Source of the DNA: Verrucomicrobiota bacterium
GTDB lineage: Bacteria; Verrucomicrobiota; Verrucomicrobiia; Verrucomicrobiales; V1-33
Direction of reading: 5' to 3'
DNA length: 55,760 bases
NCBI GenBank assembly: GCA_031429155.1
Contig: JANOZA010000855.1
Location: 1-55,760 of the forward strand
Shown: piece by piece, positions 11,901 to 46,445 of the stretch
How positions within the stretch are numbered: position 1 is the stretch's first letter
Layout: each line of letters starts with the position of its first letter
The notes under the pieces: generated by a model
Database searches by the model: none
Seen by the model: only the letters and a program-made list of their open reading frames with translations
What the model was told of the DNA's origin: nothing
Translations under genes and position numbers: made by a program

Positions 11901-14900
11901 GGCACTTACGTTGACTTCTCCCTCACCGGCGGCATTTACGCGGGACTCAAGAACATCTCCGCAGAGGTCGGCGGCGTGAACATTCTCAACAGCGGTGAGA
12001 TCAGCGTGTGGATCCCGGACATCAACATCCTGACGCTGAACGAAAACGTCTATGACGTGAACAATGCGGCGGCGAATACCGGAACATTCCTCACCTACCC
12101 CGATGCGGGGCTCAAAGGCGGGTTCAGCTTTGAGCAGATCACTTTCAACGACATCCTGCACGGCCTGAATGCGGTGGTGGACAAGCTGAGCGAGTTCAGC
12201 GCCTTCTCCTTCCTCGACGAGAAGATTCCGTTCATTGATCTGAGCCTGAACGATCTCGTGGATTATGCGGTGCAGTTTGGCGACTTGGTGGATGCTCTGG
12301 CCAATGGCGATGCCAGCAACATTCAGGAGATGCTCGAAGTCCTGGAAGACAGCATCGAGAGCCTGTTCCACCTCGATCCCGATGACTTCTCCATCACCTA
12401 CGACACGAACTCGATCAACTACGGCAGCGGCGTATCGAGCGATGTGCTCACCCACAACGGCGGGCCTGGAGTCGGGGCATGGGTGACATTTGACCCCGGC
12501 GGCCTCAACAACGCCTTTACCGTCACCCGCGATGTGAACGGCGTGGCATGGAACAACAGCCTCCTGCGCATTGAAGGGTCCAGCACCGTCAGTGGTAATC
12601 TGGCGACGGCTTCATGGGATCCGGTGAGCAAGATCATCACCATCCTCATTGATCCCGGCAACACGACAGCCGGGGCCATCGTCTCGGCGATCAACTCGCA
12701 AATCGGCGGTGCCTGGACGGCGGTGAATTTCGCGGGCAACGATGGCACAGGCACGGTGCGGACCAACGCCCTCAAGTTCCACTGGGAGTGGTCCACAGGC
12801 GTTGCACAGGAAATCCCGCTGCATCTCGACATCGCGGAACTCCTCGAAGGCCTCGGCGGCGACAATCCCGGCGTGCAGGCATTCCTTTCCGCCGCGTCGT
12901 CCATCCTTCACGTCTCCGGCAGCGGACTGCTCAATGTCAGCGCCGGAGCCGAGGTGAATCTTGATTTTGGTCTCGACCTCACGGACCCGACAACGGTGGA
13001 GGCCTTCCTCTACGACACCACGGGCGTCACGCTGGAGGCGAAAGTGACCATCACGGACCTGGAATTTGATGCCGCCATCGGCGCGCTCGGCGTTTTTGTC
13101 CGCGGCGGTGAAGTGACCTTCGACTATGACGGGGAAGGGTCCAGCACCGAAAGCGCCCAGATCACGCTGGGTCTCAAGGACCGCGACGGCGATGGCCGTC
13201 ACTACTTTGATTCTTCGTTCCTCAGCCTCGATAACATTGGCGTCACGGCGCACGCTGGCATCTACGCGGAGCTGCCGCTGTTCGCGCCGGTGGATTCCCT
13301 TCCTGTTGGCCTCAGCACTCTGGATGGCAATGGCGACGGCTTTGCCGACAACTCGCTGGGCGTGAGCATTCCCGATCTCGTCCGCCTCCTGCTCGGCGAC
13401 ACCACCGCGCTCTACACCACGAATGCCGCTGAGCGGGCGGATATGATCTTCGCCGGGGCGAATAACGACATCCGTCTCGATGTCGCGAATGGCTCCGGCC
13501 TGAGCGACATCAAGATCACGTTCAGTGACACGGGCTCGCTTTCCGCAGATTACCTCGCTGGATCGAATGAGATCGTGTTCGGCATAGACAGCGGTGTGAC
13601 CACGGCAGCGCAATTGCTGGCCTTCATCGCAGTCCCCGGCATCACCAACAATCCGGGTGGTCTGACTTGGAGCCTCGCTGCCAGTGATGCTGGGAATACC
13701 GGCCTCGGCACGCTGGCCAAGATCACCATCGCCGCGCCGGACCTCAGCGAGCTTTTCGCGGACCTCGATCTTTGCACTATCATTGACAGCTCCGTCGGTC
13801 CGCTGCTCGATGGCCTCGACGAGACGCTCGGAGACATCCAGCAGGCGCTGGAGGAAACAGTGCTCAACACCAATCTGCCGCTCATCGGTGGCGGCCTCGC
13901 CGGCGCGGCTTCCTTCATCGAAGACTTCCGCAACGGCCTGCTCGGCGAACTCCGCGCCCGCATCAATGCCGCCAACGGCAGCGCCATCGGCGCACTGGAG
14001 GACGCTATTAAGGAGGGTATCTGGAATTCCCTCGGGCCCGATGGGCTGAACCTGCTCGTGAATTTCGATGACGGCACTGACTTTGCCGCCGACGCCACCT
14101 TCGATGACTTGGACGTGACGCTTTCCTGCGACGACGGCCTCGTGGTGAATCTCCGGCTCAAGAAGTTCCTCGCCTTCCTCGACACCTCGGCGAACCCCAT
14201 TGATTTCGAGATCGGCGTGCCGGGCTTTGGCCTGGAAGTGGACGGCAACGTCGTGCTCGGCATCGGCTTCGATCTGCGCCTCGTCTTCGGCTTCAACAAG
14301 ACCGACGGCTTCTACCTCGGCACCGAAGGCGGCATGGAAGACCCAGAACTGGTGCTCGAATTCAGCGCCACCATTCCTGGTCTGCATGCTGGCGGCAGTA
14401 TATTCTTCCTCCAGCTCGACGTGATGGATGATCCCGATGCGCCGAGCCATTTCACCGGCGGCTTCTATGTGGACCTGATGGACCCGAACGGGGACGGGAA
14501 GCTGACGTTCGCCGAACTAAGCTCGGCAAACTTTGAGGACATCATCCACGGCGAACTCTCCGCAGAGGCTGATCTGAATCTCGACATCGCGGCCAGCTTC
14601 GGCGGCAATGCCAATTTCCCGCGCCTGCTGGCGGATTTCCATCTCGGCTGGGAATGGTCGTTGAGCGAAGGTTCCAGTGATCCGGTCATTGAGTTCAACA
14701 ACCTGCGTCTCGACCTCGGCACTTTCATTTCCGACGTGCTCGGCCCGATCCTCGAAGAGGTGCAAAAGATCACGCAGCCGCTCCAGCCGATCATTGATAT
14801 CGCGACCTTCAGGCTGCCGATCTTCAGCGAACTTGCGGGCAAGGACATTACCTTGCTCGACATCGCGCAAGGCTTTGGCTATCTTGATCCCGAGACGCGG

Positions 14901-17900
14901 AAGTTCATCGAGGACGTGATCGCCGTCGTGGAACTCATCAACAGCATCCCGACCGGCAGCGGCAGCATCTACATTCCGCTCGGTGCCTTCTCCATGCTCA
15001 CCAATGAGGACGGCGAGTATGACACCAACCCGCTGGGCAATCTGTCGGACATTGATCTGGATAGCGAACTCGCCAATCTCGGTAGCGAGTCCACGGCTAC
15101 CGGCACACAGATTTCGCAGACGACCGGCTTTGTGGACGGCGCGAATGCGATGGATGGATTCAGCCTGCCCTGGCTGAAGAACCCCAGCGAAATATTCGGC
15201 CTGTTCACCGGCAAGCCGGTCCGCCTTGTGGAGTGGCAACTGCCTACCTTTGCGTTTGAGTTCACTTATACGCAAAAGCTGCCGATCTATCCGCCACTAT
15301 ACGCTCAGTTTGGCGGCACGGTCGGTGCTTATATCAACATCGGCGTCGGTTTCGACACTTACGGCATTCAGAAGTTCATCGAAAACGGAGCGAAAGACGT
15401 CGCTCAGATTTTCGAGGGCTTCTATATCGCCGACTACGATGCCGAGGGCAATGAGCGGGCGGAGTTGACGCTGAGAGGCGAAATCTTTGCGGGCGTCAGC
15501 CTCAGCATCGGGCCGGTGGAAGTCGGCGTGCAGGGCGGCCTGGGAGTTGAAGTCACCTTTGACCTCAACGACATCGAAAAAGACGGCCGCGTGCGCATCG
15601 GTGAACTCATCGCCCTCGCCGAGCAGGATCCGCGCTGCATTTTCGACATCCACGGACGCGTGTATCTTTTCCTCGAAGCCTTCCTCAAGGTGGACCTGCT
15701 GCTCTTCAAGATAGACAAGACATGGCGCTTCGGGGAGTTCACGCTGTTCGAGTTTGAGAGCGTCTGCCCCGTTCCGGTGCTGGCTAGCGTCACGGGCGGC
15801 GTGCTGACGATCCACGTCGGCCTGAATGCGGGCCTCCGCCTGGAAATTGACACCAACGACAACAGCGAGACCTTTGTCATCCAGCACGTCAGCGGCGCGC
15901 AGGGCACGGAGACGGTTTCTGTCCAGTGGGGCAACTACACGCAGACCTTCGGCCCAGGCAGTGCGGATCATCCGGAAGCTTTCGACTCCATCGTGGCGCA
16001 CCTCGGGGAAGGGAATGACTACCTTGATCTCGGCACTGCGGTGACCACGGCCACCATCACCGGCGGGGCGGGGAATGACACGATCCTGCTCGGTGTAGGC
16101 ATCACTTCCACGGCCAAAGGTGAGGACGGCGACGACATTATCACCGCCGGCTCGGATGATGTGCTGATCGCCACGGGCGTCATCATCGAAGGCGGCAACG
16201 GCGCGGACCTGCTCACCGGCGTGAAGACTGCCATCACCATCAAGGGCGACGGCGGCAGTGACAAGATTTACGGCACGCCGGGCAACGACACGCTCGAAGG
16301 CGGCGACGGTGCAGACCTCATTTATGCCTACGGCGGCGATGACATCATCAAAGGCGAGGCCGGCAATGACACGATCTATGCCGACAGCGGCGCCGACACG
16401 GTAGAGGGCGGCGACGGCAATGACCTCGTCGAGGGCGGATTGGGGAATAACCGGATCCACGGCGGCAGCGGCAGCGACCGACTCTATGGGGGCTCGGACC
16501 ATGACTTGATCGTTGGCGGCACGGGCGACGACGAAATGTATGGCTATGGCGGCGTGGACCTGCTGGTGGGCGATGACTTCAACTGGACCGCTTTCACCGC
16601 AGCGAACATGAACAGCCTGGTGCTGGCCGGCAGCGCGGGAGGGAGCTTCGCCCTCCAGGATATCACCGGCAGCGGGAATGACAAGATCATCGGCGGCGGC
16701 AGCTACGATGTGATCTTTGGCGGCGACGGCGATGACTACCTCTTCGGCGGCAATCTCTTCACCTCCGGGGTTTCCCAACCCATTGAGGAGGACGACAACG
16801 ACTTTATTGATGGCGGTCGCGGCGATGATGAAATCTTCGGCGACGACAGCCTCGGCAAGACCGGGGACCGCATCACCGGCATTTCCATTGAAGGCGTCGT
16901 CTTCCACGACCTCAATCTCACCAACCTTTACGATGGCGATCCGGACCTCGACGACAGCGACCGCGGGCTGGCGGGGGTGATCGTGAAGCTTTATAAAGGC
17001 AGCGATGACTCGCTCTTCTCCGAGACCGTGACCGACAGCGCGGGCCGCTGGCAGTTGCTGGGCCTCGACCCTCTCAGCTATTATCTGAAATTCATCAGCC
17101 CGATTGGCTACACGGTGGTGACAATCAATGCCGGCTCGGCGCTGGGTCTGGATGACATCAACGAGCCGGGCGATGACAGCGATGTTTATCAGGAGAGCAT
17201 CACCCCGGCTGGCGCTGTCACCGCGAGGACGGCGGCCTTCGACCTCGGCTACGATGAAGCCGAGACGACCATAACTGCCGGCTACGCGGGCGATCCGACG
17301 CTGACCATTTACAACGAGGCCGTCTATGAGCGCAGCGAGGGCCAGACCAATTCCGCGACCTTTACGCTGACGCTCAGCGGCCCGTCCGGAGTCGCAATCA
17401 CGCTCGACTACCACACGCTGGATGGCGATGCGGGCATGGTCACGCCGGCCTACGAAAAGGCGCTGAACGCCGACAATGATTACGAGCCGATCATCGCCGG
17501 CATGGTGACTTTCCAGCCGGGCGAGATCAGCAAGACGATTACGGTCATCATCAACGGCGACTCGAAGTTTGAACTGCATGAGGGCTTCTTCCTCATCATC
17601 GAGCCGCAGGTGCCGTCACAGCTTTATACTTCGCCGACGAGCATCTCGACCAAGCAGACAATCATCAATGACGACGCCGCGCCGAGCATTACCATCACGG
17701 ACGTGACGATCAGCGAGCCGGCCACGGCGCTCGATCTGGCGGAGATGCGCTTCACGGTGCGGCTGTCGAACCAACACTGGGCGGGCCTCGTGAAGGTGGA
17801 CTACCTCACGACGGATGCCTCGGTGCTCGACGGCGATGCTGTAGGCCACTCGGCTACGGCTGGTGCGGCGAAGGACTACATCGCCCAGGGACCAACGACG

Positions 17901-20900
17901 CTGACTTTCGGTGCCGGCGAGGTGGAGAAGATCATCACCATACTGGTCAATCTCGACAACATTGATGAGTATGATGAGGCGTTCTACGTGAACCTCTTCA
18001 ATCCGGTCTTCTCCACCATCGGCGATGACCGCGGCTATGGCATCATCCTGGATACCGACGCCGCGCCGACGGTTTTGATCAAGCCATTCATCATGGATGC
18101 CGACCCCAGCGGTCAGAGCACGACGGTCTTTGAACTGCACACCGAGTCCACGATGGCGCTGTTTGATGTGATTATCACCGGGGCCACGGAAAAGACGATC
18201 ACGGTCAACTGGAGCACTGCTCGCGGCACCGCGGAACCGGGCTTTGGAATTGCGGTGGGCGACTACTTCGATCCCGCGACCAGCGACACCGCTGACGAAG
18301 CCGCCACCAGCGACACCACGCTCGTCTTCGCGCCGAATGGAATGCTGACGCAGACGAAGCAAATCAGCGTCGAGGTGCAGGGCGACACCCTTGATGAGGA
18401 CGTGGAAGAGCACTTCTACGTGAACCTACTCACCGCGGACGGGGCCACGATCACGCAAAACCACGGCGTCGTCCGCATTCTTGATGACGACGGCCCCGGC
18501 GGTTCCGGAGGGCCATACGATGTGCGATTCGCCCGCGCCAATTTCCAGGATTGGGAAACCGAGACGACCCATGACGGATTCCTCACACTGGTGCGCACCC
18601 CCGGCCCTGGCCAGGCCTACACCATTCTCACCGTCACCGGCGGCACGGCCACGAGCGGCGCGGACTATATCGCCACCACCAGCCAGCTCATCGTTTTCGC
18701 GGTCGGTGAATATGTGAAGCAGGTGCCAATCTCGATCATTGGCGACGAGATCAACGAGTATAACGAGACGATCACATTCAGCCTGCGCCGCCCGACCGGT
18801 GCTCCCTCCAATGGCGTGCCCTACGTGGCGACGATGACGATCCTGGATGACGACAATGTTAGCATCTATGTCCATGCCTCCATCACCAATCAGGTGGAAG
18901 GCACTGGCGGCCATGTGTTCCACGTTCACCTGGTGGACGCGGACAATCCGGTGATCGGCGATTACAAAACCACCGAGCAGAACATCACGTTCAACTATCG
19001 GACGCTGGCCATCACTGCGACCGCCGGCAGCGATTATGTGAGCATCCCGCTCACGGCCGGCTTGTTCAATTCTCCGGCCAACTCTTTCCTGTCCATCCCC
19101 GTGACGGACGTGGGTAATGCCACGCCGGAGTTCTCGGAGGTCTTCCGCGTGCTGGTGAGCAGCGTCGTGGGTGCGAGCGTTTACGTTCCGTATGCCGACG
19201 GTGTTATCCTCGACGACGACAAGGCGCTCATCGAAGGCTACATCTTCCAGGACGACAACGAGAACGGCTATTGGGACGATGTCACGGAGTCGGCCTTCGG
19301 GGACGTGAATGTGACGATCACGGATTCCGGCGGCGGTGTTTATCCGGTCACGACCACTCCGGCGGGCTATTACTCCGCGTCCATACTGCTCGGGGATCTC
19401 ACTTTCCGCGTGCTGGAGAATGACACCATCGAGGGCTGGGAAGTCACGACGGAGAATGACTCCCAATCCGCCGAGTTTGACGGCAGCGTGGGCCTCACGC
19501 CGCTGACGCCGGTGGGCTATCGCACCACGGAGGAGATCGAACTGCCGAACAGCGCAGACAGCGTGGGCCGGGGCGGCACGGATGACACGCTCTTCGGTGG
19601 CCCGGGCGATGACTACATTGATGGCGGCGCGGGCGATGATCACATCGTCGGCGGTCACTGGCAGACGGCCACGGATTCCGCGGCCCCGATCAATACCGGC
19701 ACCTACGACGCGACGATCATCGCCAACTACATCAAGAACGGCCCGCCTGTTGTGCCGCCGCTCGTGCCGACTGAAATCCAGGATCCGCAAACGGCGCCGA
19801 TCTGGACCGTGAATACTGCCATCGGGGCCGGCACGGGCCTGGTCAGCGGGAATATCTTCGTGGACACCAATGACTCCAGCCGCCACGACGAGGGGCTGTA
19901 TCTCTTTGAAGTCGTCGTCACGCTGCTCGACTGCGATTCCAATATCATTGATGTCCAGGCGACGAGCACGGGCTTCTATGAGTTCGATGGACTCTACGAG
20001 AACGATTACTACCTGGTGTTCAGCCTGCCCGCCGGTCAGCAGTTCGTGGCCCCTAATGTAGGCGCTGACGGCGATGACAGTGATGCGGAGTATGCCGGAG
20101 CCACCGCGGCGTATCATTTCAACGTGGGCCAGGCGCGGACGAATGTGGATGTTGGTCTGGAAGTAGCCGGCTCGGCCGCCGTCGCCAGCACTTCCAGTGT
20201 GGAATTTGACCAGCCGGAATATCATGTCGTGGAAAGCGCCGGAGTCGTCACCATCACCCTGATTCGTACCAATGCCTCCACTGCCGAGGCCGTCGTTTGG
20301 TTCGCCGAAGACGGCGCTGCGCTGGAGGGCTCGAACTACACTGGCGTGCAGGGCATCGTGATTTTCGGCATCGGCGAGACGCTGGCTACTTTTGAGATTC
20401 CCATCCTCGACTCCGGTCTCCCTTCCGCCTGCGATGTGAAGGACTTTCACCTCAGCGTGCGCCGCCCGACCGGCCAGCCGATCCGCGGCGGTGAAGCCGA
20501 TGTCTATATCCACGGCGAAGGCGGCATCCCGCTCACGGACGACGACACCATTCTCGGCGGCGAAGATTGGGACATCATCCTCGGCGACAGCGGCCACATC
20601 ACCTCCTACGTGGTCCAGGCTCAGTTTGTGAACCCTGTGACTGACATCGAAGACAACGCGGGCATGGGGCACGACACGATCTACGGCGACAACGGCCCTG
20701 ACTACATCAACAGTCAGCTCGGCAATGACCTTGTGGTCGGCGGCGAGGGCAATGATTACGTCTTCGCCGGCTACGGCGATGACCGCATCATCGTGGAACT
20801 CGACGACGACACCATTGATGGCGAGCATGGCACCGACACCATCGCCGGCGTCTCGAATCGCACCTTCATCACGCTGACCGGCGGCGCGGATCCGCAGGAA

Positions 20901-23900
20901 CTGCGCTTCGGCACCTCGGCGGTCTTCAATGTCGCGGACAGCGTCTTCACGCTCTACAAGATCGAAAAGGCGGAAGTCTTCGGCACCCCGGGCGACGATA
21001 CCATCACCATCAATACCTTCGCCGGCGAGGTCTTCGTCTTCGGCGATGACGGCAATGACGTTCTCCAGGTCCAGTCCGACGCTGCGACCATGACCGCCGC
21101 AGATGCCAGCGCGATCCAGAAGCTCATCTACCTGATCTTCTACGGCTTCAATGTGGAGGCCAATGTGACGCTCTCCACCGGCGCGGCCTATCACTTCGGT
21201 GAAATGGAAACCGTGAAGCTGACCGGCGGCCCATCCGCAAATGTTCTGGATGGCGGCGGCTGCAGCTTCGATCTCATCTTCGACGGTGCTGCGGGGAACG
21301 ACACGCTCATCGGAGGCGGCGGCGATGACACCTTCCTCTTCGACCTCGATCTCGTGAACGGCGCCGACACAGTGACTGGCAACGGCGGTCTTGATACCAT
21401 CAGCTTCGCGGGCAGCTCCAATACCGCCCACGCGGTCCTTGATCTCGGCAACATCGGCAGCAACCAGACGGTGCGCACCGGCTCCCTCCTCCTCAATCTC
21501 ACCGCTGAAGACATCGAAGGTGCCACCGGCGGAGACGGCAACGACAACCTCACCGGCAACAGCCTCGACAACATCCTCGACGGCGGGCTCGGCGGCGACG
21601 TGCTCACCGGACGCGCCGGCAGCGAGACCTATCGCTACGACCTCGACCTCGGCCTCGTGCAGGCCGATGAGATCGTGGAAAACGGCGCTGACGCTGGCCA
21701 CGACATTATTGACTTCTCCACCACCACCGGCGTGGCCGTCTCGCTGAACATGCAACTCACCGCGTTCCAGCCGGTGGGCGGCGGGCTCTCGCTCAAGATC
21801 ACCGGCACCGGCGTGGATGAAGTGATCGGCGGCTCGCTGGCGGACAATATCACTGGCAACAGCGGCAACAACACCCTGCGTGGCGGCCCGGGCGATGACA
21901 CGCTCTACGGTGCTCAGGGCGACGACTTCCTCGACGGCGGCGCAGGCACGGACTTGCTGGACGGCGGGGAAGACGGCGAGATCAACGGCGACAGCATCGC
22001 GGCCATCGCCAATTCCAACTTTACGCTCACGGACACCATGCTCCTGCGAAACGGCAGCGACGTGGATAACCTCTTCAATATCGAAACCGCCACCCTCACC
22101 GGCGGCGCGTCGAACAACGTCTTCACCCTCACCGGCTGGACCGGCAATGCGACCATCAATGGCAAAGGCGGCACGGACACCATCGTCTTCACCGCGGACG
22201 AAGACATGGACCTCGCTACCTCCGGCGGCACTGATGTGCTCAGCGTCGGCATCGCGCCCTTCACCTTCACCGCCTCCAATGTCGAGCGCTGGACCCTCAC
22301 CGGCGGTGTGAGTGCCAACAACATTGACGCCAGCCTCTACACCCGCGCCGGCGGCTTCCTCACTTTGTCAGGCAACGGCGGCGCGGATACGATCATTGGC
22401 AGTCAGAATGACGACCTCATCAACGGCGGCAGCGGCAACGACAATCTCACCGGGGGCAGCGGCAACGACACAATCCTCGGTGGCACCGGCACGGACCGCG
22501 TGATCGAAACGACCGACCTCACTATGTGGGTCGTGAATTCCGGCCTCGAAATCACCCGTGTCGCCACCGGCGTGGAGACCGACGATCACACATCCATCGA
22601 AATACTCGACCTCAGCGGCGGAGCCGGCCCGCAGACCTTTGTTTATACCGGCTCACTGGCCAGCGTCACCGGCATCAGCTTCGCCGGCGGTCCGGGCAGC
22701 GATGTTGTGGGAGCCATTTGGAACGGCAACATGACCGCCACCAACGCCCTGATGACGCTCGACGGCGCGCCGCCCATCAGCATCTCCAACATGGAAATCG
22801 TCGCGCTCCTCGACGGCGCAGGCGATCACCTGCTGGATGCCAGCCTCTTCACCGGTGTCGGCGGCGCGTTCCTCTCCGGCGGTGGTGGCAACGACGTGCT
22901 CAAAGGCACCGGCGTCGCAGACACGCTCATCGGCAATGCCGGCAACGACAGCCTCGAGGGCTTCGGCGGCAATGACTCGCTCAACGGCGGCGACGGCGAC
23001 GACACTTACCTCTTCAACACCTTCCTCGCCCTCGGCACCGACACTATCATTGACTCCGGCGGCACGGACAAACTGGACTTCTCCGCCAGCACCGTCACCA
23101 ACGTTGTGAACCTCACGCTCATCGCCAATCCGGTGCATGTGAACCTCACGCTCAACTGGGCCCTCGGCACGCTCATTGAGAATCTCACCGGCGGCAGCGC
23201 CGTGGACACCTTCACCGGCGATGCCAACGCCAACGTCCTCACCGGCAACGGCGGCAACGACAACCTCAGCGGCGGCCTCGGCAATGACACTTACGTCTTC
23301 GATGTGGATACCAACCAGGGTGCCGACATTCTGACGGACACCGGCGGCGTGGACACGCTCGACTTCTCTGCCACCAGCAGCGCGAAGAATCTCACGGTGA
23401 ACCTCAATCTCGGCGGCGTGCAGCAGACTGACGCCGCCACGCTCTTTCTCTCCATTACCAACGCGAGCAGCATGGAGAACGTGGTCGGCGGTGAAGGCAA
23501 CGACATCCTCACCGGCAATGCCGCGAACAACAATCTGACCGGCAATGGCGGCAACGACACCCTCACAGGCAACAACGGCAATGACACCCTCACTGGTGGG
23601 GCCGGCAACGACACTCTCCAGGGTAATGCAAACGACGACACCTACGTCTTCAACGCCGGTCTTGCTGGTCAGGGCTTGGACACCGTCAGCGACAGCGGCG
23701 GCACCGACACGCTCGACTTCTCTGCCACCTCCGGTCTCGGTATCACCTTCACGCTCGGTTCGACCGCCATTCAGACTGTCGCCCTCGCAGCCCCGACAAA
23801 CCTCCGGGTGCAGTTGAATTCGGCAGCGGCTTTTGAAAACGTCATCGGCGGCAGTGGCAATGACACGCTCACCGGCAACAACCTCGTCAACACCTTCACC

Positions 23901-24440
23901 GGCAACGCCGGCAGTGACACCATCAACGGCTCCGTCACCGGCAATGACCGACTCGCCGAGACCCGCGATGTGGACTTCACCCTCCTCGATTTCTCCGCCA
24001 CTCAGGCTCTGCTCACGGTGAACGGCATCGAGACCGACACCCTTAACAACATTCACTACGCCACCCTCACCGGCGGCGACTCCGCCAACACAATTGATGT
24101 CAGCGAATTCGGCAGCCTCGCCACCGTCGTCACCACCGCCTTCCTCAACGGCATGGGCGGCGATGACACCCTCATCGGCGGCGGCGATGCTGACCTGCTG
24201 CTCGACCATGTCATGAACTTCGACGGCGGCACCGGCGACGACACTTACGTCTTTGATCTCGCGCTCCGTTCTCTCAACACGATCACCGAAGGTGCCGGCG
24301 ACCTGCATGACACCATCATCGGTGCCGGCGGCGGTCTCGTGGACCTCGCCGCCATCGTCTTCCATACGCCGGATGCCATCAACTATCCCTTCTTCCAACT
24401 CAAGTTCACCATCGCCTCCACCGTGGAGCACACGCTATGA
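5982..24440 (+). CDS. Giant (6152 aa) secreted repeat protein: LEPR-XLL N-terminus, unassigned tandem repeats, RTX-type Ca-binding repeats, Calx-beta and SdrD/Cna-B-like modules
   Basis: A single uninterrupted ORF with a GTG start at 5982. The N-terminus [24 protein letters not shown] matches the LEPR-XLL motif seen on PVC-group giant proteins. Many GGxGxDxL/I nonapeptides occur. Calx-beta-like signatures include [28 protein letters not shown] and [38 protein letters not shown] hexamer lies at 5934-5939. Confidence 0.9.
   Translation: [6152 protein letters not shown]
8100..10230 (+). repeat. About six tandem ~115-140 aa coding repeats inside the giant gene (family not recognised)
   Basis: A recurring block reads (E/I)(F/L)NTTG ... 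P(A/G)GPYL(R/K)(V/F) ... (S/T)GNFxFE(K/Q) ... VAVTNxxFxF ... LxSxTxGxGxFI(I/L) ... G(I/M)AGTAS. The GPYL-type anchors sit near nt 8200, 8560, 8935, 9295, 9715 and 10085. Confidence 0.8.
16060..16850 (+). repeat. RTX / hemolysin-type Ca-binding nonapeptide block 1 (coding)
   Basis: [107 protein letters not shown]. Confidence 0.85.
17290..19220 (+). repeat. Array of about five Calx-beta-like modules (coding), flanked by SdrD/Cna-B-like modules at ~16880-17285 and ~19225-19490
   Basis: Each ~105-140 aa module ends in an ...ILD(D/T)D boundary and contains xDYxxxxxxLxFxxGExxKxIxVxIxxDxxxExxExFxVxL. The Cna-B-like segment reads [36 protein letters not shown]...[12 protein letters not shown]. Confidence 0.75.
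20540..24260 (+). repeat. C-terminal ~1240-aa RTX-type or parallel-beta-roll repeat region (coding)
   Basis: Dozens of GxxGNDxLxG units occur, for example [37 protein letters not shown]. They are interleaved with recurring GG(T/V)DTLDFSATS ... spacer modules. Confidence 0.8.
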
Positions 24441-27400
24441 AAACGCACTCAGCCACAGAACCAGGACGGCCCCGCGGCCCCTCGCCGGGCCTGCTGCCAC
24501 GCGCGGCGTGGCTCATCGCTGCCTTCGCGGCACTCTGCTTCGCCGGCAGCGTCCGCGCGCAGGGCGGCAGTCTCATCGTCATTGATAAAATCCTCGCGGC
24601 AGAGGACAACGTGGATGTTTACGATCACGAGGGCGACCTGCCCGCCGTGATTTACATCAAAAACAACGGCACCGGCCCCGCCACCATCTCGAACTTTTCC
24701 CTCACCGATGATCAGCAGGAGCCCAGGAAATGGATTTTCCCTTCCGGTACCATCACCATCACCATCGGAGCCGGCCAGACCCTTCCGGTCTTTGCCTCGG
24801 GAAAGAATCGCCTAACATCGCCCTACGCCACGAACTTCGTCCTGCCCTGCAATTCCACCGGGTACCTTTACAACCCACAGTCAGGGCTCATCTCGCAGAA
24901 GGGAGTCTTCGGTTCCGAATGCCCGGAGTGCTTCGATTTGATCCCCGATACGGTTAACAACGCCTATCTCGTTCCCACCGCCTCCAATCCCCCTCAGACC
25001 GGCACCGACTGGCGGCTCCCGGCATTCAGCGACACCCAGTGGCCCCGCTCCTTTCCGTGCCTCGGCTACGAAAGCGATCCAATCGTGAACAACATGATCC
25101 TCTACTCCACGTTCGACACGCCGGATGTGAATGTCGCTGCCAGGACCATCACCGACGTCAGCGGTCCCGCCGTTTTCCACACCGGCACCTGGCCCGCATC
25201 GGCGGCGGCCTCGAACATCGGCATCCCCATGACCTCGCTGCCGAAGATACTGCAAAACGTAGAGTTCTACGGCATCAACAACGCCAACAGCTACGTGGAG
25301 TATGTGCATAACGCCGAACTCAATCCCCTCACCGCCAGCTATAGTTTCTCCGTCTGGTTTCGCCCCACCAACAACGACATCTCCAATGGTGAGGTCATCT
25401 TCCGCAAAGGCCGCGTCTCCACCACTGACACCACCGGCTTTGTTCTTTCCCGCGGCCCTTCCAACCAGCTTGCCTTCAGCATCTTCACGCCCGGTTCCCC
25501 CAACATCAATGTCACCACCCCGATCAATACTGCCACGCTGAACGCATGGAATCATGCAATGGTCGTCATCACGCGGACCACCACGCACACCGCGAAGATT
25601 TACCACAACGGCATTGAGAGAGCCTCCGGCAACATCCCGGCCGCCCAGTCCGTCACCGGCGGCACCACCGCCCCCAACGCCAATCTTTACCTCGCCCGCG
25701 CCATCTCCGGCGGCGGCCCCGTCAATTTCACCGGCAGAATGGACGACTTCGTTACATGGGGCCGCGCCCTGCCTCCGGCGGAGGTCACCCGCGTGTATGA
25801 CACCGGCAATGCCGGCAAGAAAGTCAATGACCCCACCGCCCCCGGCGGTCCCGGAGTCCTCTTCGCCCCCTGCATCCAGACGAACGTCCAGACCGCCATG
25901 AAGAACGTCAATCCCGGCATCTACCAGCGCCTGCCATTCTTCGTGGCCAATCCTTCCGCCGTCAGTGCCATGACTTTCAAAGTGAAGTATGCCGATGGCT
26001 TCATCGCTTACATCAACGGCGTCGAAATCGCCCGCCGCAACGCGCCCACCAGCGCGGTTTGGAATTCCGCCGCCACCGCCGACAGGCCCGATGCCAGCGC
26101 CATCATCCTCGAAGAAATCCCTGTCCCCCCAGCCGCCATCGCCGCCCTCACCGTGGATGGCCAAAGCATCCTCGCCATCCACGCCATGAACTTCACGGCC
26201 AACCAGGACCGCTTCCTCATCTGCCCGGACCTTTGCTATGAAGAAATGGGCCCCGAAGACTGCTACACCACCACCAGCGGCCGGGACTTCTGGATCACCT
26301 ATCCGGGCAATGCCCCTGACGACACCGCTAATCCACTCCAACTCAGCGTCTGCATCACCGGCAGTTTCGGCACTCAGGTCATCGCCACCATCCCCGGTCT
26401 CGCATGGAGCAGCGGCCTCCTCGCCCTCCCCGCCGGCGGGAGGCTGGACGTCGTCCTGCCCAAAGCCGCCAGCCTCGACAAGAGCGACACCATTGAAAAC
26501 AAAGGCGTCCACATTGTCGCCAGCAAGACCGTCGCCGTGTATGGCAAGACGCGCATAGATTTCTCCACCGACACTTTCGTCGCGCACCAAATCAAGACTC
26601 TGGGCTCCAGCTACATCGTCCTCGGCTGGGGAAACAAGTGGCCCTACGCAGACCTCAACGGCTCGCAGTTCGGCATCGTTGCCACTGCCAACAACACCCA
26701 CGTCACCATCAAGCCCACCGCCACCACCGGCGCGCACATCGCGGGAGTGCCCTATAATTTCATCTTCAACCAGGGCCAGACCTACCTGCTGCGGAATACC
26801 ACCGACGCCGCCGACCTCACCGGCACAGAAATCACCTCCGACAGCCCTGTTGCCGTCTTCGGCGGGCACCGCTGCGCCAATGTGAACGGCGAGGTATTCT
26901 TCTGCGACACCGTGCTGGAGCAGACCCTCCCCGTCGCGCTCTGGAAGACCGAATACTGCGTCGCCCCACTCGCCACCCGCACCAGCGGCACCGAACTCAT
27001 CCGCGTCGTCGCTGCGGAAAACGGCACCACCGTCTCCATCAACGGCGTCGCCCAGCCAACCGTGCTGAACAAGGGTGATAAGCAAAACTACACGCAAGCC
27101 GGCGGTGCCGTCATCACCGCCAACAAAAAAATCCTCGCCGCTCACATGTCCCGCAGTTCCGATGCCGATGGCGTCGTCAATGCCGACCCTTTCCAGATCA
27201 ACGCCCAGCCCAGGACGAGTTGGCTGGCCGGCTACAAATTCTGCACCGCTCCGGCGACTGAATTCGGCACCCATTACGCCAACATCATCGCCCTGAATGG
27301 GGAGATCGCCGGCGTTGCCGTGAATCCCCTGCCGCTGGCCGATACCGGTCCTGTTGCCATCGGAGTCACGGCCTATTCCTACCGTCAGGTCACCCTCGCC

Positions 27401-28195
27401 GCTGGCACCACCTACACCAGCAGCGGACGCACCCACGGCCTGGAAATCTACGGATGGGGCGAATACGACTCCTACGGCCACACCGGCGGCATGGGCTTCG
27501 CCGACAGTCTGCCGCCCACCTTTACCCAGTGCCCGCCGGATATCACCATTTTCACAACTCTCATCCCTGGTGCCGGCGAACGCGCCACTATGCCCGATCT
27601 CGGCGCGCAGTTCGGCGTCACCGACAACTGCTGCCCGCTGACCACCCTTTCGATCGTACAAACTCCCGGACCCGGCACCCTTCTCGCGGTCGGTGACTAC
27701 GTCGTCATCATCCAGGCCACCGACTGCAATCAGAACACCATCACCTGCGTGGTAAATGTTCACGTCCGCACCGACCCCCGCGCCGCCGCCTTCCCCACCC
27801 AGTTCGGCAATCCCGCTCTCGAAGCCACCGTCTGGGGCTGGCAGGCGGATCCTGATGGTGATGGATTGTCCAATGAAGTCGAGGATGCCCTCGGGACCAA
27901 CATGGCTGTGGCTGTGTCCGGCGAGCTTTCTTCCGCGTTGAGCTTTCGTCGCGTCTCTTTTGGCAACGTGGATGGTGTCGAGGTCAGCTACCGCAAACGA
28001 AATAACAATCCGTCCTACGACTACAGCCCCGAAGGCAGCGCTGACCTGAATGGCTGGTTTAGTGGCCTCGGTCATTTCGAAGAAACCTCCATCACCCCCG
28101 ATACCCTCGCTGGCTTTAACCGTGTTCGTGCTTTCAGCCACGACAGTGTTCCTTTCAGCCGCTTCTTCCTGCGCCTGATCATCCGCAGGAACTGA
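24437..28195 (+). CDS. Secreted 1252-aa multidomain protein: lamin-tail-like domain, LamG/ConA-like lectin domain, IgGFc-binding-N-like beta-helix region, HYR domain, thrombospondin-type-3 motif plus C-terminal tail
   Basis: Its ATG (24437) overlaps the giant gene's TGA (24438-24440). Signal peptide: AAWLIAAFAALCFAGSVRAQG. LTD-like: LIVIDKILAAEDNVDVYDHEGDLPAVIYIKNNGTGPATISNFSLTDD. LamG-like: YSFSVWFRPT...GRMDDFVTWGRALPPAEVTRVY. Also GRDFWITYPGN. HYR-like: PPTFTQCPPDITIF...GDYVVIIQATDCNQNTITCVVNVHV. Ca-binding-type motif: DPDGDGLSNEVED. Confidence 0.9.
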   Translation: MKTHSATEPGRPRGPSPGLLPRAAWLIAAFAALCFAGSVRAQGGSLIVIDKILAAEDNVDVYDHEGDLPAVIYIKNNGTGPATISNFSLTDDQQEPRKWIFPSGTITITIGAGQTLPVFASGKNRLTSPYATNFVLPCNSTGYLYNPQSGLISQKGVFGSECPECFDLIPDTVNNAYLVPTASNPPQTGTDWRLPAFSDTQWPRSFPCLGYESDPIVNNMILYSTFDTPDVNVAARTITDVSGPAVFHTGTWPASAAASNIGIPMTSLPKILQNVEFYGINNANSYVEYVHNAELNPLTASYSFSVWFRPTNNDISNGEVIFRKGRVSTTDTTGFVLSRGPSNQLAFSIFTPGSPNINVTTPINTATLNAWNHAMVVITRTTTHTAKIYHNGIERASGNIPAAQSVTGGTTAPNANLYLARAISGGGPVNFTGRMDDFVTWGRALPPAEVTRVYDTGNAGKKVNDPTAPGGPGVLFAPCIQTNVQTAMKNVNPGIYQRLPFFVANPSAVSAMTFKVKYADGFIAYINGVEIARRNAPTSAVWNSAATADRPDASAIILEEIPVPPAAIAALTVDGQSILAIHAMNFTANQDRFLICPDLCYEEMGPEDCYTTTSGRDFWITYPGNAPDDTANPLQLSVCITGSFGTQVIATIPGLAWSSGLLALPAGGRLDVVLPKAASLDKSDTIENKGVHIVASKTVAVYGKTRIDFSTDTFVAHQIKTLGSSYIVLGWGNKWPYADLNGSQFGIVATANNTHVTIKPTATTGAHIAGVPYNFIFNQGQTYLLRNTTDAADLTGTEITSDSPVAVFGGHRCANVNGEVFFCDTVLEQTLPVALWKTEYCVAPLATRTSGTELIRVVAAENGTTVSINGVAQPTVLNKGDKQNYTQAGGAVITANKKILAAHMSRSSDADGVVNADPFQINAQPRTSWLAGYKFCTAPATEFGTHYANIIALNGEIAGVAVNPLPLADTGPVAIGVTAYSYRQVTLAAGTTYTSSGRTHGLEIYGWGEYDSYGHTGGMGFADSLPPTFTQCPPDITIFTTLIPGAGERATMPDLGAQFGVTDNCCPLTTLSIVQTPGPGTLLAVGDYVVIIQATDCNQNTITCVVNVHVRTDPRAAAFPTQFGNPALEATVWGWQADPDGDGLSNEVEDALGTNMAVAVSGELSSALSFRRVSFGNVDGVEVSYRKRNNNPSYDYSPEGSADLNGWFSGLGHFEETSITPDTLAGFNRVRAFSHDSVPFSRFFLRLIIRRN

Positions 28196-43068: not shown

Positions 43069-43145
43069 CGCTGAGCCTGTTGCCGGAACATTGGATAATC
43101 GAATTGCGCGGCTCCAGGTATTGCGTGGTGTAGGCGGCTATTCAT

Positions 43146-44870
43146 ATGCCGAAGCCTAAGCATCCTCTGCGCCAGCTCCGTGCTGCCACGCCTTTTGGGA
43201 CGCAGGCGGCGTTCGCCGCGTTTATCGGGGTGCCGGTGGGGGTGCTGCAGGCGCTGGAGTCGGGTCGCGGGCGCCTCACATCAAAGCTGGCGGCCAGGGT
43301 CAGGGAACTGACGGGTGCGGATGAAATTGAATTGCTGCGCGGCGCGGGCGGGGCGGCAGCGACGCTGTCGGGCCGGCGTTACACGGCGGAGGATTTTGCA
43401 GCCTGGCAGGGATCAGCGGCACAGACCGAGGATCGGGCGAGGCGGGTGGCTCAGGAACAGGCATGGCGCGAAGGCTGGCAGAAGCTGGCCTGCGACGCGG
43501 CTGCACCCTCAGATGCACTCGTGCCCTGGCAGACGTGTGAATTTGGCAGTGCAGAGGCTCGCGCATGGAAAGAAATGACGCCTGCTCAGCAGCGGCTTAC
43601 CGGTTGGTCTGCGGAGCTGTCGCTGCCTCCGCGCACGCGGCTCACTCTGGCCGTCCAGGCCGCTCCGCCGTGGAATCCTGAAGCCCCGCCGCCGGGCCTT
43701 GCAGCGGCGAACGCAGAGTTGTTCCCTCCCTGCTATTTCACGGTCGCGGCTGGCAGCGGAGGTTGCCGCATGGCGAATACTTTCTGGCGGGCAGTGTGCA
43801 GGGAGCATGCGGTAAATTCCAGCGACGGGCAGCCGATCCACGATTCGCCCACGGGGAATTGGCGTGGATTTTTCCGCAGCCAATCGGGTCGTTGTGAACC
43901 TCACGCGGTGTTCACTGGTTTGGAACCGGGTGAGGCTGGCGACTTGGAGAGCGGTTTGTTTTCCGGGGGCGGAATTTTGTGTGGCAGGGCAGGGGAGGAC
44001 ATGGCGCAGGCGACGTTGAGCTTTATCGAGGCACACTCCGAGGATGCTGGAAGTCCGGCCGGGATTTTCCTGTTTGCGTCTCTGGAGGGCGGCACCGCCA
44101 GCGCGCTCGGCAGCCTGCTTCTGGAGCGTCTGAGAGAAAGGTTTCCTTCAGCCCCGGTAATGATAATTGCCGTGCTGCCGGTATCGGGCGTCAGCCCGGT
44201 GGTGGGGGCCCCACTGCACATCGCGTTGGCCATGCAGGCGATTCGCCGCCATGCGGGCGCGGCCTTGCTCTTCAGCACTGATCAACTCCATGGCCAGGCC
44301 CGGAAGTTCTGGGGAATCGATTCTCCGGGCTACGACGAGGCGAATTTGCTGATCTCGGAATGTCTCGCTGCCCTTACCGCTCCACTCCGGTTTGGCGGCA
44401 CGGATGCGCCGCCCGTGGATCTCACGGAGATCATCGCCTGCCTTCAGGCAGGTGATGCCGGGCGCTTGCCGGTGATTACGGGGCATTGCTGGCCGATTAC
44501 GGTGCTGGCAGACCGGCGGTTGAAGACGATCACGCTCCCATGGCTCATGCAGCGGACCCTGCGGGCTGCCACAAGTCTCACCCGGGAGGCTGCTGCGGTC
44601 ATGCTTTGTCTTCGCGTGCATTTGCTGGCCGGCGGGGAATTTATCATCAGCGACGACCCGCCAGCCATTGACCTAAGCGGGCGCATTGGGCCCGGACTGC
44701 ACGAGTCAGCGTCCGGCTTCGCTCCGTCGCCGGTTATTGGCAGCCTGCTACGCCGCCTCGCCCGTCAGGCCCACGAGGTGATGGCGACGCAGAACGCGGC
44801 TGAATTGTGCCGAGATTTGGGGGTGACGGAGGCCACTGTTCGCTCGGCTATTTCTGATATGACCTGCTGA
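43146..44870 (+). CDS. Fusion protein: N-terminal XRE-type helix-turn-helix plus C-terminal divergent tubulin-like domain
   Basis: HTH: LRQLRAATPFGTQAAFAAFIGVPVGVLQALESGRGRLTSKLAARVRELTG. From about aa 195 to 574 the protein is colinear with tubulin motifs: ANTFWRAVCREHAV, AVFTGLEPGE, GIFLFASLEGGTASALGSLLLERLRERFP, VLPVSGVSPVVGAPLHIAL and LRFGGTDAPPVDLTE (see finding). Confidence 0.85.
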   Translation: MPKPKHPLRQLRAATPFGTQAAFAAFIGVPVGVLQALESGRGRLTSKLAARVRELTGADEIELLRGAGGAAATLSGRRYTAEDFAAWQGSAAQTEDRARRVAQEQAWREGWQKLACDAAAPSDALVPWQTCEFGSAEARAWKEMTPAQQRLTGWSAELSLPPRTRLTLAVQAAPPWNPEAPPPGLAAANAELFPPCYFTVAAGSGGCRMANTFWRAVCREHAVNSSDGQPIHDSPTGNWRGFFRSQSGRCEPHAVFTGLEPGEAGDLESGLFSGGGILCGRAGEDMAQATLSFIEAHSEDAGSPAGIFLFASLEGGTASALGSLLLERLRERFPSAPVMIIAVLPVSGVSPVVGAPLHIALAMQAIRRHAGAALLFSTDQLHGQARKFWGIDSPGYDEANLLISECLAALTAPLRFGGTDAPPVDLTEIIACLQAGDAGRLPVITGHCWPITVLADRRLKTITLPWLMQRTLRAATSLTREAAAVMLCLRVHLLAGGEFIISDDPPAIDLSGRIGPGLHESASGFAPSPVIGSLLRRLARQAHEVMATQNAAELCRDLGVTEATVRSAISDMTC

Positions 44871-44954: not shown

Positions 44955-45146
44955 ATGAACAAGCCCGCCGCTTTCCTCCTCCTCGCTCTCGCTCTTGGCG
45001 TTAACACCAGTTGCGAACAGCAAAGCTACGAAGAGACGAAAATGTTCAATCAGTCGTCCAAGCCCGGCGTCCATGCGCATGATGCCCACCCGGAAAAGGA
45101 CGCTGGGAAAGGTGCCCCCGCCGAACACCCCAAAGTGAAGGAGTGA
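44955..45146 (+). CDS. Small putative lipoprotein or secreted peptide (63 aa)
   Basis: MNKPAAFLLLALALGVNTSC is a signal peptide with a lipobox-like Cys. A charged, His-rich tail follows. Support is from the ORF and signal peptide only. Confidence 0.45.
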   Translation: MNKPAAFLLLALALGVNTSCEQQSYEETKMFNQSSKPGVHAHDAHPEKDAGKGAPAEHPKVKE

Positions 45147-45286
45147 GCTGGTGGCTCTACCGGGCGCGATGATGGAATCGCACCTTGCTTTTCAATGGCC
45201 GGCAGGCTAATGGAATCCCCTAGTCGGGCGAAACTGAGCTTTTTCGCATCAAGCCCCGGCTCAATCAGCCACTACGACTATTCCCC

Positions 45287-46135
45287 ATGAAAATGACCCA
45301 TTTTGCCATCGCCGGACTCTTCCTGCTCCTCGGCGCGGGAATTTATCTCACCGTCCAGACGGATATGGACGGACGCATGGAGCAGCAAAAAGCCGATTTC
45401 GAACGGATGCGCGCTGAGAGCGACAAGAAGATCGAGCAGTTGGAGAAAACGATGCGCGATCAGAAGGCACCGCCTGCCGTTGCGGATGCGGCGACTGACC
45501 TGAAAAACACTGTGGCGGGCGAAGCGGATGCCGCAGCCGCGCAGGCAAAAAAGGCGATCGCCAATGTAAAGTCTGCCCTGGAAGATCAATCGCCCGGAGC
45601 AAAGGAGATTGAGGGCGCTGTGGACAACGCGACGAAAGGTCTGACGCGACGGGCCAATGATCTTACCTCCGCGCCGAAGGCTGCGGTGGATGGTGCCGGG
45701 GAAAATTTGACCGAAACGGCGGACGAGGTAGCGCAGCGCATCCTCGAAAAGGAACAGGACGTTCTTAACAACACCGGCGTGAGTGACGCGCGTATCGCCC
45801 GTGACACTGCGGAAGTGACGGGCGCCATTCCGGATAATCTGGCACCGCGGATGACCAATATCCAAACTCAGATCATGGCCCAGCCGGCGATAGCCCGCGT
45901 GGAGAATGCCAATGCTGCCGCCAACGAGGGTTTTGTGATTCTTGATCGCGGTCTCAACGCCAATCTCGCCAAAGGCGACGCCTTCGCCGTTCGGCGCGGC
46001 ACCGCAGTGATAGGGCGCGTAGTGATCGGCGAAACCATGGAAGAGACGCGTTGCGTCGCTGAAGTTCTCGCAAGGCACCTCGTGCAGGGCATGGTCATTC
46101 AGAAGGGCGACGAAATCATCAAGTTCGACCAGTAA
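45287..46135 (+). CDS. Membrane-anchored coiled-coil / Ala-Lys-Glu-rich protein with a small C-terminal beta-rich domain (hypothetical)
   Basis: N-terminal TM segment FAIAGLFLLLGAGIYLTV. About 180 aa of helical low-complexity sequence follows. The C-terminus reads GFVILDRGLNANLAKGDAFAVRRGTAVIGRVVIGE...VIQKGDEIIKF. The antisense ORF 45278..46078 has an Arg-rich junk composition. Confidence 0.7.
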   Translation: MKMTHFAIAGLFLLLGAGIYLTVQTDMDGRMEQQKADFERMRAESDKKIEQLEKTMRDQKAPPAVADAATDLKNTVAGEADAAAAQAKKAIANVKSALEDQSPGAKEIEGAVDNATKGLTRRANDLTSAPKAAVDGAGENLTETADEVAQRILEKEQDVLNNTGVSDARIARDTAEVTGAIPDNLAPRMTNIQTQIMAQPAIARVENANAAANEGFVILDRGLNANLAKGDAFAVRRGTAVIGRVVIGETMEETRCVAEVLARHLVQGMVIQKGDEIIKFDQ

Positions 46136-46145
46136 GCGCCTGCGG

Positions 46146-46445
46146 ATGAAGTCGGCGGATGCTGTCAGTCAGGAACGCGAGGAGGCGTGGATCGGTGATG
46201 CGGTGCTGGCGCTCTTCGCCCGGCGCTGGATTCTCGCCAATCAGCGATGCATGGATGCCGACCTGTTCACGGCGATGACGTCCAACCAGTTCCTCAGCAC
46301 CATGAGCAACCCCACACGCCTTGAGGCCCGCATCGGGAGACGATTCACCGAGGCCGGCTTGGAAGCCGCCTTCGCTTTCATTGAGGCCGAAATTCTTCCC
46401 AAGTTTCTCGCACAGACGAAGAAGGTCCGCTGCGGACGGAAGTGA
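46146..46445 (+). CDS. RNase III-domain protein (Mini-III-like)
   Basis: 99 aa. EEAWIGDAVLALFARRWIL resembles the RNase III signature (ExLExLGDAxL). The size fits the mini-RNase III class. Recognition is motif-level only. Confidence 0.55.
   Translation: MKSADAVSQEREEAWIGDAVLALFARRWILANQRCMDADLFTAMTSNQFLSTMSNPTRLEARIGRRFTEAGLEAAFAFIEAEILPKFLAQTKKVRCGRK

Follow-up and report, generated by a model that had tools for sequence, protein, structure and literature searches.

An XRE-type helix-turn-helix module fused to a BtubA-related tubulin in an apparently undescribed protein family of Verrucomicrobia

Background

Recent surveys have limited the bacterial tubulins to BtubA/B (PMC9871819), and the cellular function of the Btub proteins has been unknown since 2002 (PMC9871819, PMC13394414, PMC2175320). 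The published btub operons consist of btubA, btubB and bklc only, and their flanks are unrelated (PMC2175320; PMC3232192). The archaeal tubulins AtubA/AtubB and Odin tubulin possess canonical GTPase motifs and form mini-microtubules or tubules, with no DNA-binding fusion (PMC13394414). In the 2026 paper on the Asgard tubulins, "previously unidentified Verrucomicrobia sequences" appear only as members of the BtubA clade and the BtubB clade, and the terms HTH (helix-turn-helix), DNA-binding and fused are absent from it (PMC13394414). In the present study, a stretch of 55,760 nt from a Verrucomicrobiota bacterium (contig JANOZA010000855.1 of assembly GCA_031429155.1, forward strand; the whole stretch is referred to as the window) was analyzed, in which one gene encodes an XRE-type HTH and a tubulin fold within a single polypeptide.

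The open reading frame (ORF) at 43146..44870 (+) begins with ATG, encodes 574 aa and is the sole long ORF at this position. Its start codon is assigned correctly, as shown by conservation of the N-terminal sequence MPKPKHPLR among orthologs. The protein can be divided into 3 parts, namely an XRE-type HTH with a basic arm (aa 1-65), an adaptor (aa 66-195) and a tubulin fold (aa 196-574). Both this ORF and the covalent fusion of an XRE-type HTH to a tubulin had been put forward in an original prediction made from the DNA letters, and both are borne out by Pfam, phmmer, the structural model and the homology of separately encoded modules. As that prediction had also supposed, no description of the HTH-tubulin architecture was found in the literature searched, and the same holds for the pair of a stand-alone module and a tubulin, here named tub1, that is found in relatives. 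The HTH-tubulin family of Verrucomicrobia is thus apparently undescribed.

Results and discussion

A tubulin fold closest to BtubA

The product of ORF 43146..44870 has a true tubulin fold, and the fold is closest to that of BtubA. In Pfam, the Tubulin/FtsZ GTPase domain (PF00091) was matched over aa 199-383 with E=2.9e-17 and 64 bits, against a cut-off of 33. When all PDB chains were searched with phmmer, the closest chain was Prosthecobacter BtubA (2bto_A, E=3.2e-35, aa 199-432), and further matches included Asgard AtubA (3.8e-24), alpha-tubulin (~1e-20) and BtubB (1e-18). All of the 60 best matches listed were tubulin, Btub or Atub, and neither FtsZ nor TubZ was found among them. Alignment of the family profile to a BtubA-like protein by hhalign gave a probability of 99.9% over aa 199-565, reaching residue 413 of the BtubA-like protein, and therefore homology extends through the C-terminal domain to helices H11/H12.

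The structural evidence is in agreement. The AlphaFold2 model, for which 26 family members were used as input, has a mean predicted local distance difference test score (pLDDT) of 87.4 and a predicted template-modeling score (pTM) of 0.86. In a Foldseek search of the PDB, BtubA was the top match (E=5.8e-23, template-modeling score (TM) 0.72 on the target). Next came alpha/beta-tubulin and AtubA/B, tubulin targets being aligned over their full length at TM 0.67-0.72, and the top 50 matches were all tubulin, Btub or Atub. Among viral structures, the best PhuZ/FtsZ-like match reached only E=2.4e-7 and TM 0.52, far poorer than BtubA. The Rossmann-like N-terminal domain, H7 and the activation domain are all present in the model. 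The original prediction had placed the protein with tubulin proper and Btub rather than with FtsZ, TubZ or PhuZ, and this placement agrees with the phmmer, Foldseek and viral-structure comparisons as well as with the significant PF00091 and BtubA-like profile matches. The motifs that it quoted lie where they had been read, with SLEGGTASA at aa 312-320 and E428 encoded by codon 44427-44429, and they align as claimed. The label "eukaryotic-type" should be replaced by BtubA-related, since the family is sister to BtubA and belongs to the same order as Prosthecobacter.

The tubulin N-terminal domain, of nucleotide-binding type with remodeled loops (aa 196-395, 43731..44330, +), was delimited by PF00091, the BtubA alignment and the motifs. 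It is followed by H7, loop T7 and H8 (aa 396-432, 44331..44441, + strand, from alignments), where tubulin Y224 and N228 have retained counterparts in Y396 and N400, and the sequence LRFGGxD is invariant. The activation (C-terminal) domain (aa 433-574 and stop, 44442..44870, +) is reduced according to DSSP, hhalign and the alignment. Two long terminal helices, aa 529-546 and 562-573, correspond to H11 and H12 in the DSSP assignment of the model, and a segment of M-loop length is also present; H10 and the H9-S8 loop are shortened, and there is no acidic tail. In the alignment this domain is ~40 aa shorter and is without the RKAFxxWY motif. A search for Tubulin_C (PF03953), which had been suggested together with that for PF00091, gave no match in the window protein even at E<=10, whereas the same family does match the BtubA-like proteins of two related loci (L022 and L024).

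The N-terminal HTH and the adaptor

The HTH, which has the five-helix XRE/Cro fold, occupies aa 1-65 together with its basic arm (43146..43340, +). Taken alone, the window protein stays below the Pfam cut-offs, with 16.5 bits against 23 for HTH_3 (E=0.0086) and 10.6 bits against 27 for HTH_31, and a profile search of its N-terminus against the PDB gave HigA3 at E=0.016 and a PbsX-family regulator at E=0.026. The assignment is nevertheless firm, because HTH_3 or HTH_31 is matched by 7 of 16 ortholog N-termini (best E 7e-7), homologous modules exceed the HTH_3 cut-off (35.5 bits for P0091 and 24.9 bits for P0041), and superposition of the model on HigA bound to DNA and on the PbsX-family regulator gives a root-mean-square deviation of 1.5-1.7 Å over 47-51 residues with ~30% identity. 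These superpositions have Foldseek probabilities of 0.96-0.99, yet their E-values are above 0.1. The "clear XRE-type HTH" of the original prediction is thus upheld by homology and structure, but the word "clear" is too strong for the window sequence alone. The HTH domain carries a net charge of ~+5, and the basic arm HPLR is invariant. Both features give indirect support to the probable binding of DNA by the HTH and the arm.

The following ~130 aa had been taken for a linker. Conservation and the model indicate a folded domain instead: aa 66-195 are conserved, numerous Trp, Pro and Gly positions being invariant, and fold confidently in the full-length model, while no Pfam family and no PDB fold was matched by this segment. 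Its first part, a beta-hairpin with a long helix, or stalk (aa 66-117, 43341..43496, +), has pLDDT >85 in both the full-length and the isolated N-terminal models, and G69, G76, R78, Y79, W87 and W111 are invariant in it. The second part (aa 118-195, 43497..43730, +) contains the motifs VPWQTCEF, GW, LTLxVQxxPxWNP and AANAELFPPC and is a putative tubulin-docking subdomain. In the full-length model its pLDDT is ~85-93. When aa 1-198 were modeled alone, aa 1-115 kept pLDDT >85, aa 118-133 and 170-198 fell to <50, and the residues between were at ~64-74. Since aa 118-195 are confident only when the tubulin body is modeled with them, this part probably packs onto the tubulin body. In agreement with such packing, one group of relatives (group B) starts at ~aa 111 and therein retains the aa 118-195 part in the absence of the HTH. 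The same part is homologous to the C-terminal half of stand-alone module proteins.

Altered GTP-binding motifs and purifying selection

The nucleotide-binding motifs were compared with BtubA and alpha/beta/gamma-tubulin, using the numbering of alpha-tubulin. In T1 (43746..43775, +, AAGSGGCRMA by alignment), GSGGCR stands in place of the canonical GQAGNQ, and the AAGSGGCRMA sequence is invariant within the family. In T2, D69 is replaced by G. At the T3 site (43974..43994, +), alignment with BtubA and alpha/beta/gamma-tubulin reveals a deletion of ~13 residues that removes the whole gamma-phosphate sensor loop GxGNN(W/F)A. The T4 signature SLEGGTASA (44079..44105, + strand, by alignment) reads LEGGTASA against the canonical GGGTGSG, and S312, L313, E314 and G315 are invariant. 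The T5 loop LPVSGVSPVVGAPLHI (44175..44222, +, by alignment) has VGAPLH instead of VVEPYN, with loss of the ribose-binding E183 and N186. Altogether, the equivalents of Q11, D69, E183 and N186 are all replaced in the window protein. In T7, the D251 equivalent is Pro.

The degeneracy of the nucleotide motifs had been predicted, and the alignment confirms it for T1, T2, T4 and T5. Two of the accompanying claims need qualification. The equivalent of the catalytic Glu (E254) is indeed present as E428, but this residue is not conserved in the family. The "shortened H3 region" does lack sequence, but the description was an understatement, as the entire T3 loop is deleted.

The changes do not have the appearance of decay. 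Members of groups A and B, the former including the window protein, show no variation in the remodeled T1 and T4 sequences. Between the window protein and a 73% identical ortholog (locus L005), the ratio of nonsynonymous to synonymous substitution rates (dN/dS) is ~0.20 in the HTH, ~0.16 in the adaptor and ~0.15 in the tubulin N-terminal domain, at dS ~0.7-1.3. Purifying selection in all domains indicates that the protein is functional.

Distribution of the family

A large protein database contained 36 homologs, most of them with 100% coverage and with 48-92% identity, and an exhaustive search of representatives gave 16 clusters at E<=1e-30. An intact ORF was present in >30 assemblies, at identities as low as 48%, and 64 columns of the alignment are invariant. 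All 10 loci from the genome collection belong to metagenome-assembled genomes (MAGs) of Verrucomicrobiota, mostly titled Verrucomicrobiales or Verrucomicrobiaceae; three are labeled "Akkermansia". Automatic annotation describes the members as "hypothetical", "XRE-family transcriptional regulator" or "helix-turn-helix transcriptional regulator".

According to domain content and motifs, the family can be divided into 3 groups. Group A, with the window protein, comprises HTH, adaptor and tubulin in ~575-630 aa and has degenerate GTP motifs. Group B has no HTH, starts within the adaptor, ends in a C-terminal tail and also has degenerate GTP motifs. Group C comprises HTH, a longer adaptor and tubulin in ~640 aa, and its motifs are near-canonical (LEGGTGSG, G/APYN, SGNxFA). 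The survey of homologs that had been proposed thus shows the HTH fusion to be retained in groups A and C and lost in group B. The C-terminal tail of group B (P0029-P0033, P0040; L006-L010, L012-L016) consists of an acidic/Gly-rich linker and a short aromatic peptide, MLPDFGWD, GEFDWG or LELIFE, reminiscent of the FtsZ C-terminal docking peptide.

Stand-alone modules, tub1 and extended btub clusters

Separate module proteins of ~220-230 aa are homologous end to end with aa 3-185 of the window protein (hhalign 99.9%, E=7.6e-36). In eight loci (L019, L020, L022, L024, L025-L028) the module gene lies directly upstream of tub1, a tubulin with the canonical motifs GQAG, SGNNFA, GGGSGSG and TEPYN, and the spacing between the two genes ranges from an 8-nt overlap to 50 nt. 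Downstream of the stand-alone module P0104 (L021) lies a convergent gene instead of a tubulin; therefore the pairing of module and tubulin is frequent, not universal. A metagenome scan with the module profile returned one irrelevant locus (L023).

A complete six-gene btub cluster was found in L024 (GCA_048267005.1, JBLWYI010000006.1, 10001-17392), in the order module (220 aa), tub1 (422), a 509-aa protein, BtubA-like (510), BtubB-like (425) and Bklc-type tetratricopeptide repeat (TPR) protein (258). Locus L022 (GCA_013003335.1, 8001-13435) shows this gene order as far as the beginning of btubB, at which point the contig ends. Its second tubulin, tub2, is BtubA (match to P. dejongeii BtubA at E=2.8e-207), and for its tub1 the closest similarity is to BtubA (1e-70), with AtubA next. 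Another variant occurs in L025-L028 (~10001-15547 in L025), with module, tub1, ORFs of 88/156/106 aa, a BtubB-like tubulin and a TPR protein. As the small ORFs occupy the positions otherwise taken by the 509-aa gene and btubA, BtubB may in this variant have tub1 as its partner instead of BtubA.

Two further observations concern these clusters and the tubulins related to them. The protein between tub1 and btubA is conserved (507/509 aa; L022 10091-11614 and L024 12116-13645). It has no Pfam or NCBIfam match, a Ser/Thr-kinase-like hint from the PDB is non-significant (E=0.34), and as a hidden tubulin it was rejected at an hhalign probability of 0.1%. In the representative library, P0055 (738 aa) is a BtubA-like tubulin with a C-terminal TPR, possibly a fusion of BtubA-Bklc type.

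Phylogeny

Neighbor-joining trees were computed from Kimura distances over ~410-426 trimmed columns, with 100 bootstraps, both with and without fast-evolving groups. Groups A and B were joined with a bootstrap of 96-97 and groups A, B and C with 100; the tub1 clade was likewise supported at 100, and the fused family together with tub1 at 97-99. The BtubA clade (P0053, P0055, P0060, L022 tub2, L024 tubA) had a bootstrap of 91-98, with the window protein outside. The family, tub1 and BtubA were united at 76-86, and BtubB was separate. The proposed phylogeny therefore groups the family with tub1, the two together being sister to BtubA. Tubulins with a similar T1 loop ("GGAGCR") were considered as relatives and set aside, as the trees identify them as divergent alpha-like tubulins that are not close.

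From these sequence comparisons, the fused family is most probably a derived offshoot of a BtubA paralog associated with the HTH module, and group B has lost the HTH secondarily. The motifs form a graded series, canonical in tub1, intermediate in group C and degenerate in groups A and B. Fusion is a simpler reading than fission, because the split form has the canonical motifs and the location in btub clusters.

Locus context

The window is a chromosomal segment in which the HTH-tubulin gene is single-copy among housekeeping genes. The genes cdsA, dxr, gcvH, an exonuclease and infC are located directly upstream, gatB is downstream, and ftsK lies at 2893-5691. A tblastn search of the 55.7-kb window detected neither another tubulin nor BtubB, a TPR protein of Bklc type or a second HTH module. 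The prediction that no partner tubulin is near the gene thus holds, and bklc is equally missing from the window. No iteron or tubC-like array was found there, the only repeats being two-copy ones of 12-17 nt at chance level, and Rfam gave no match in the window at gathering thresholds.

Upstream of the ATG, the sequence TCGAATTGCGC, a 19-nt spacer and TGTAGG (43099..43134, +) make up a promoter-like element. It is conserved in 4 of 6 group A loci (the window, L005, L001 and L004) despite differing upstream genes, and its second half reads T(G/A)TA(G/A)G across loci. The window contains one exact copy of the element, and TCGAATTGCGC occurs elsewhere in the window at chance level. The element was not called as a promoter in a scan with the sigma-70 consensus. 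It ends ~11 nt short of the start codon, and no Shine-Dalgarno sequence is obvious, which implies an almost leaderless transcript. Its conservation in sequence suggests that it is a promoter.

Three genes follow on the same strand, encoding a 63-aa signal-peptide protein (44955-45146, +), a 282-aa protein with a transmembrane segment and a coiled coil (45287-46135, +) and a 99-aa, weakly RNase III-like protein (46146-46445, +). Their Pfam matches are weak, and none is informative. A survey of the downstream genes had been recommended, and it gave a divided result by tblastn: the block (44955..46445) is syntenic in L001 and L004/L011, where the outer flanks differ, but it is absent in L002 and L003. 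The neighborhoods of the group B and C genes are all different. Since the block is shared by some group A loci only and the group B and C neighborhoods are unrelated, no obligate partner gene can be named.

Elsewhere in the window, a second ORF of 574 aa (459-2183, -) was tested as a paralog and proved to be an unrelated sulfatase, the equal length being coincidental. A 6152-aa ORF (5982-24440) contains Calx-beta and RTX calcium-binding repeats but is without Pfam matches over the first 2000 aa. It overlaps by 4 nt with the gene for a 1252-aa protein with LTD, LamG and IgGFc-binding domains (24437-28195).

Possible roles of the HTH-tubulin protein

The reading favored here, with somewhat better than even probability, is that the window protein is a DNA-tethered, GTPase-dead pseudo-tubulin that serves as a transcription regulator or a nucleoid-bound scaffold rather than as a dynamic filament. 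The window gene would be the fused form of the adaptor and tubulin pair, no longer beside btubAB or bklc within the 55.7 kb. The HTH and basic arm would bind DNA, and the C-terminal half of the adaptor (aa 118-195) would clamp the tubulin body as an intramolecular version of an adaptor-tubulin complex. With T3 deleted, T1, T2, T4 and T5 altered and the T7 acids unconserved, the tubulin body would not be working as a GTPase switch; from this loss it is proposed that it acts as a constitutive platform for self-association or for the binding of partners. Several points weigh against this reading. Each of its three elements (binding of DNA, inability to bind GTP, and self-association) is an inference. 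The equivalents of the guanine-contacting Y224 and N228 are kept everywhere and that of N206 in most members, and since the altered T1 and T4 are invariant as well, a nucleotide or another ligand could still bind. T7-H8 and the segment of M-loop length are well conserved within the family, so the protein could still polymerize. A strong operator palindrome was not found upstream of the gene. The polarity of fusion and fission is not settled by the neighbor-joining tree, and such trees from simple distances are vulnerable to long-branch artifacts.

One rival reading is that of a working cytomotive filament for DNA segregation or positioning, in effect TubR and TubZ in one polypeptide, which would bind nucleotide, polymerize and move the DNA held by the HTH. 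The adjacent HTH-adaptor and tubulin genes of the relatives resemble tubR-tubZ, Y396, N400, T7-H8 and the M-loop-length segment are conserved, and the remodeled T1 and T4 are invariant rather than decayed. Such a filament is nonetheless unlikely, as the gamma-phosphate loop T3 is deleted, the equivalents of Q11, D69, E183 and N186 are replaced and the catalytic acids of T7 are not conserved; moreover, no iteron or centromere-like array is present near the gene, which is a single-copy chromosomal gene among infC, gatB, dxr and ftsK, and the protein is outside the TubZ/PhuZ clade. The same invariant but non-canonical pocket residues (G203, S204, G206, R208, S312-G315) may be interpreted in another way, with the pocket binding GDP/GTP or another small molecule and thereby controlling the HTH. 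XRE regulators typically have an N-terminal HTH and a large C-terminal sensor or oligomerization domain, which is the domain order found here; the base-contacting residues are kept, and several loci carry a monocistronic gene with a conserved upstream element of its own. A ligand-sensing transcription factor of this kind is still more doubtful than the filament, given that no regulated target or operator was identified, no neighboring gene is conserved family-wide and the split ancestors belong to a cluster of cytoskeletal genes, an argument for a structural role.

In a further rival reading, the HTH would be a protein-protein module that links the tubulin body to another component of the cytoskeleton or divisome instead of DNA. 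The precedent is RodZ, a membrane protein in which an XRE-type HTH binds the actin homolog MreB. The recognition helix of group A is unusually hydrophobic (VPVxVVQAVE, versus SAATIQAIE in the split modules), the upstream region yielded no operator palindrome, and group B has, in place of the HTH, a C-terminal aromatic peptide resembling a docking motif. This possibility is regarded as improbable, to about the same degree as the filament, because XRE regulators and antitoxins bound to DNA are the structures that match best, the domain combines a net charge of ~+5 with the invariant basic arm HPLR, and the module passes the HTH_3 thresholds in relatives. That the gene is merely a decaying relic of btub type, without present function, would accord with the degenerate GTP-binding motifs and the absence of partner genes from the window. 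This is rejected as very improbable because the conservation data contradict it, with the ORF intact in >30 assemblies, 64 invariant columns and dN/dS of ~0.15-0.2 in every domain; the promoter-like element is conserved and the model is confident.

Beyond the pseudo-tubulin reading, a more speculative proposal, to which only a small probability is given, is that the pair of HTH-adaptor and tubulin is a third, previously unrecognized component of the Btub system, by which tubulin polymers are physically coupled to DNA. Its fused descendant would then be the window protein, still self-assembling into DNA-anchored polymers without nucleotide or with a non-canonical ligand. If true, this would represent a bacterial, chromosomally encoded linkage of DNA and tubulin built from tubulin proper, and the first functional handle on the purpose of the Btub mini-microtubules.

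Comparison with known systems

The locus adds a further BtubA-related lineage in Verrucomicrobiota MAGs, in which an XRE-type DNA-binding module is consistently present, either as a partner or fused to the tubulin, and it suggests a testable DNA connection for the bacterial microtubules. The lineage also provides an evolutionary series from canonical GTPase with separate adaptor to near-canonical fusion, degenerate fusion and finally an HTH-less form, a natural series for the conversion of a cytomotive tubulin into a non-GTPase scaffold or regulator.

Among the known systems, BtubA (2bto, 2btq, 5o09) shares with the window protein the fold, including H7, T7 and H11/H12, as well as the bacterial order; the two belong to sister clades, and the BtubA cluster of btubA, btubB and bklc also houses the unfused relatives of the window protein. 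The window protein differs in its extra 195-aa N-terminal HTH and adaptor, in the deleted T3, the non-canonical T1, T2, T4 and T5 and the unconserved T7 acids, and in the shortened C-terminal domain with no Tubulin_C match. It has no BtubB or Bklc nearby in the 55.7 kb and is placed outside the BtubA clade. The pair of stand-alone module and tub1 is similar in that the module corresponds to window aa 3-185 and tub1 is the closest tubulin clade; in this pair, however, there are two genes, the tub1 motifs are canonical, and linkage to btubA, btubB and bklc is observed. The Asgard AtubA/AtubB and Odin tubulin resemble the window protein as prokaryotic tubulins proper, and AtubA is the second-best PDB match.

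With regard to DNA, the type III system TubZ-TubR-tubC also couples an HTH adaptor to a protein of the tubulin superfamily, by adjacent genes in the relatives and in one chain here. The analogy to TubR and TubZ drawn in the original prediction is strengthened by those relatives, in which the HTH module and the tubulin are adjacent genes. The window protein differs from TubZRC in that its tubulin part is tubulin proper rather than TubZ/PhuZ, its HTH is of XRE/Cro type rather than a winged helix, its GTPase motifs are degenerate, and its gene has no centromere iterons and a chromosomal housekeeping context. SlmA, a DNA-bound protein with a TetR-type HTH, binds FtsZ and so links DNA to a tubulin homolog. 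Both RodZ and SlmA resemble the window protein as HTH proteins coupled to a cytoskeletal protein; unlike it, they act in trans, are unrelated to the adaptor and are not fused to the cytoskeletal protein with which they are coupled.

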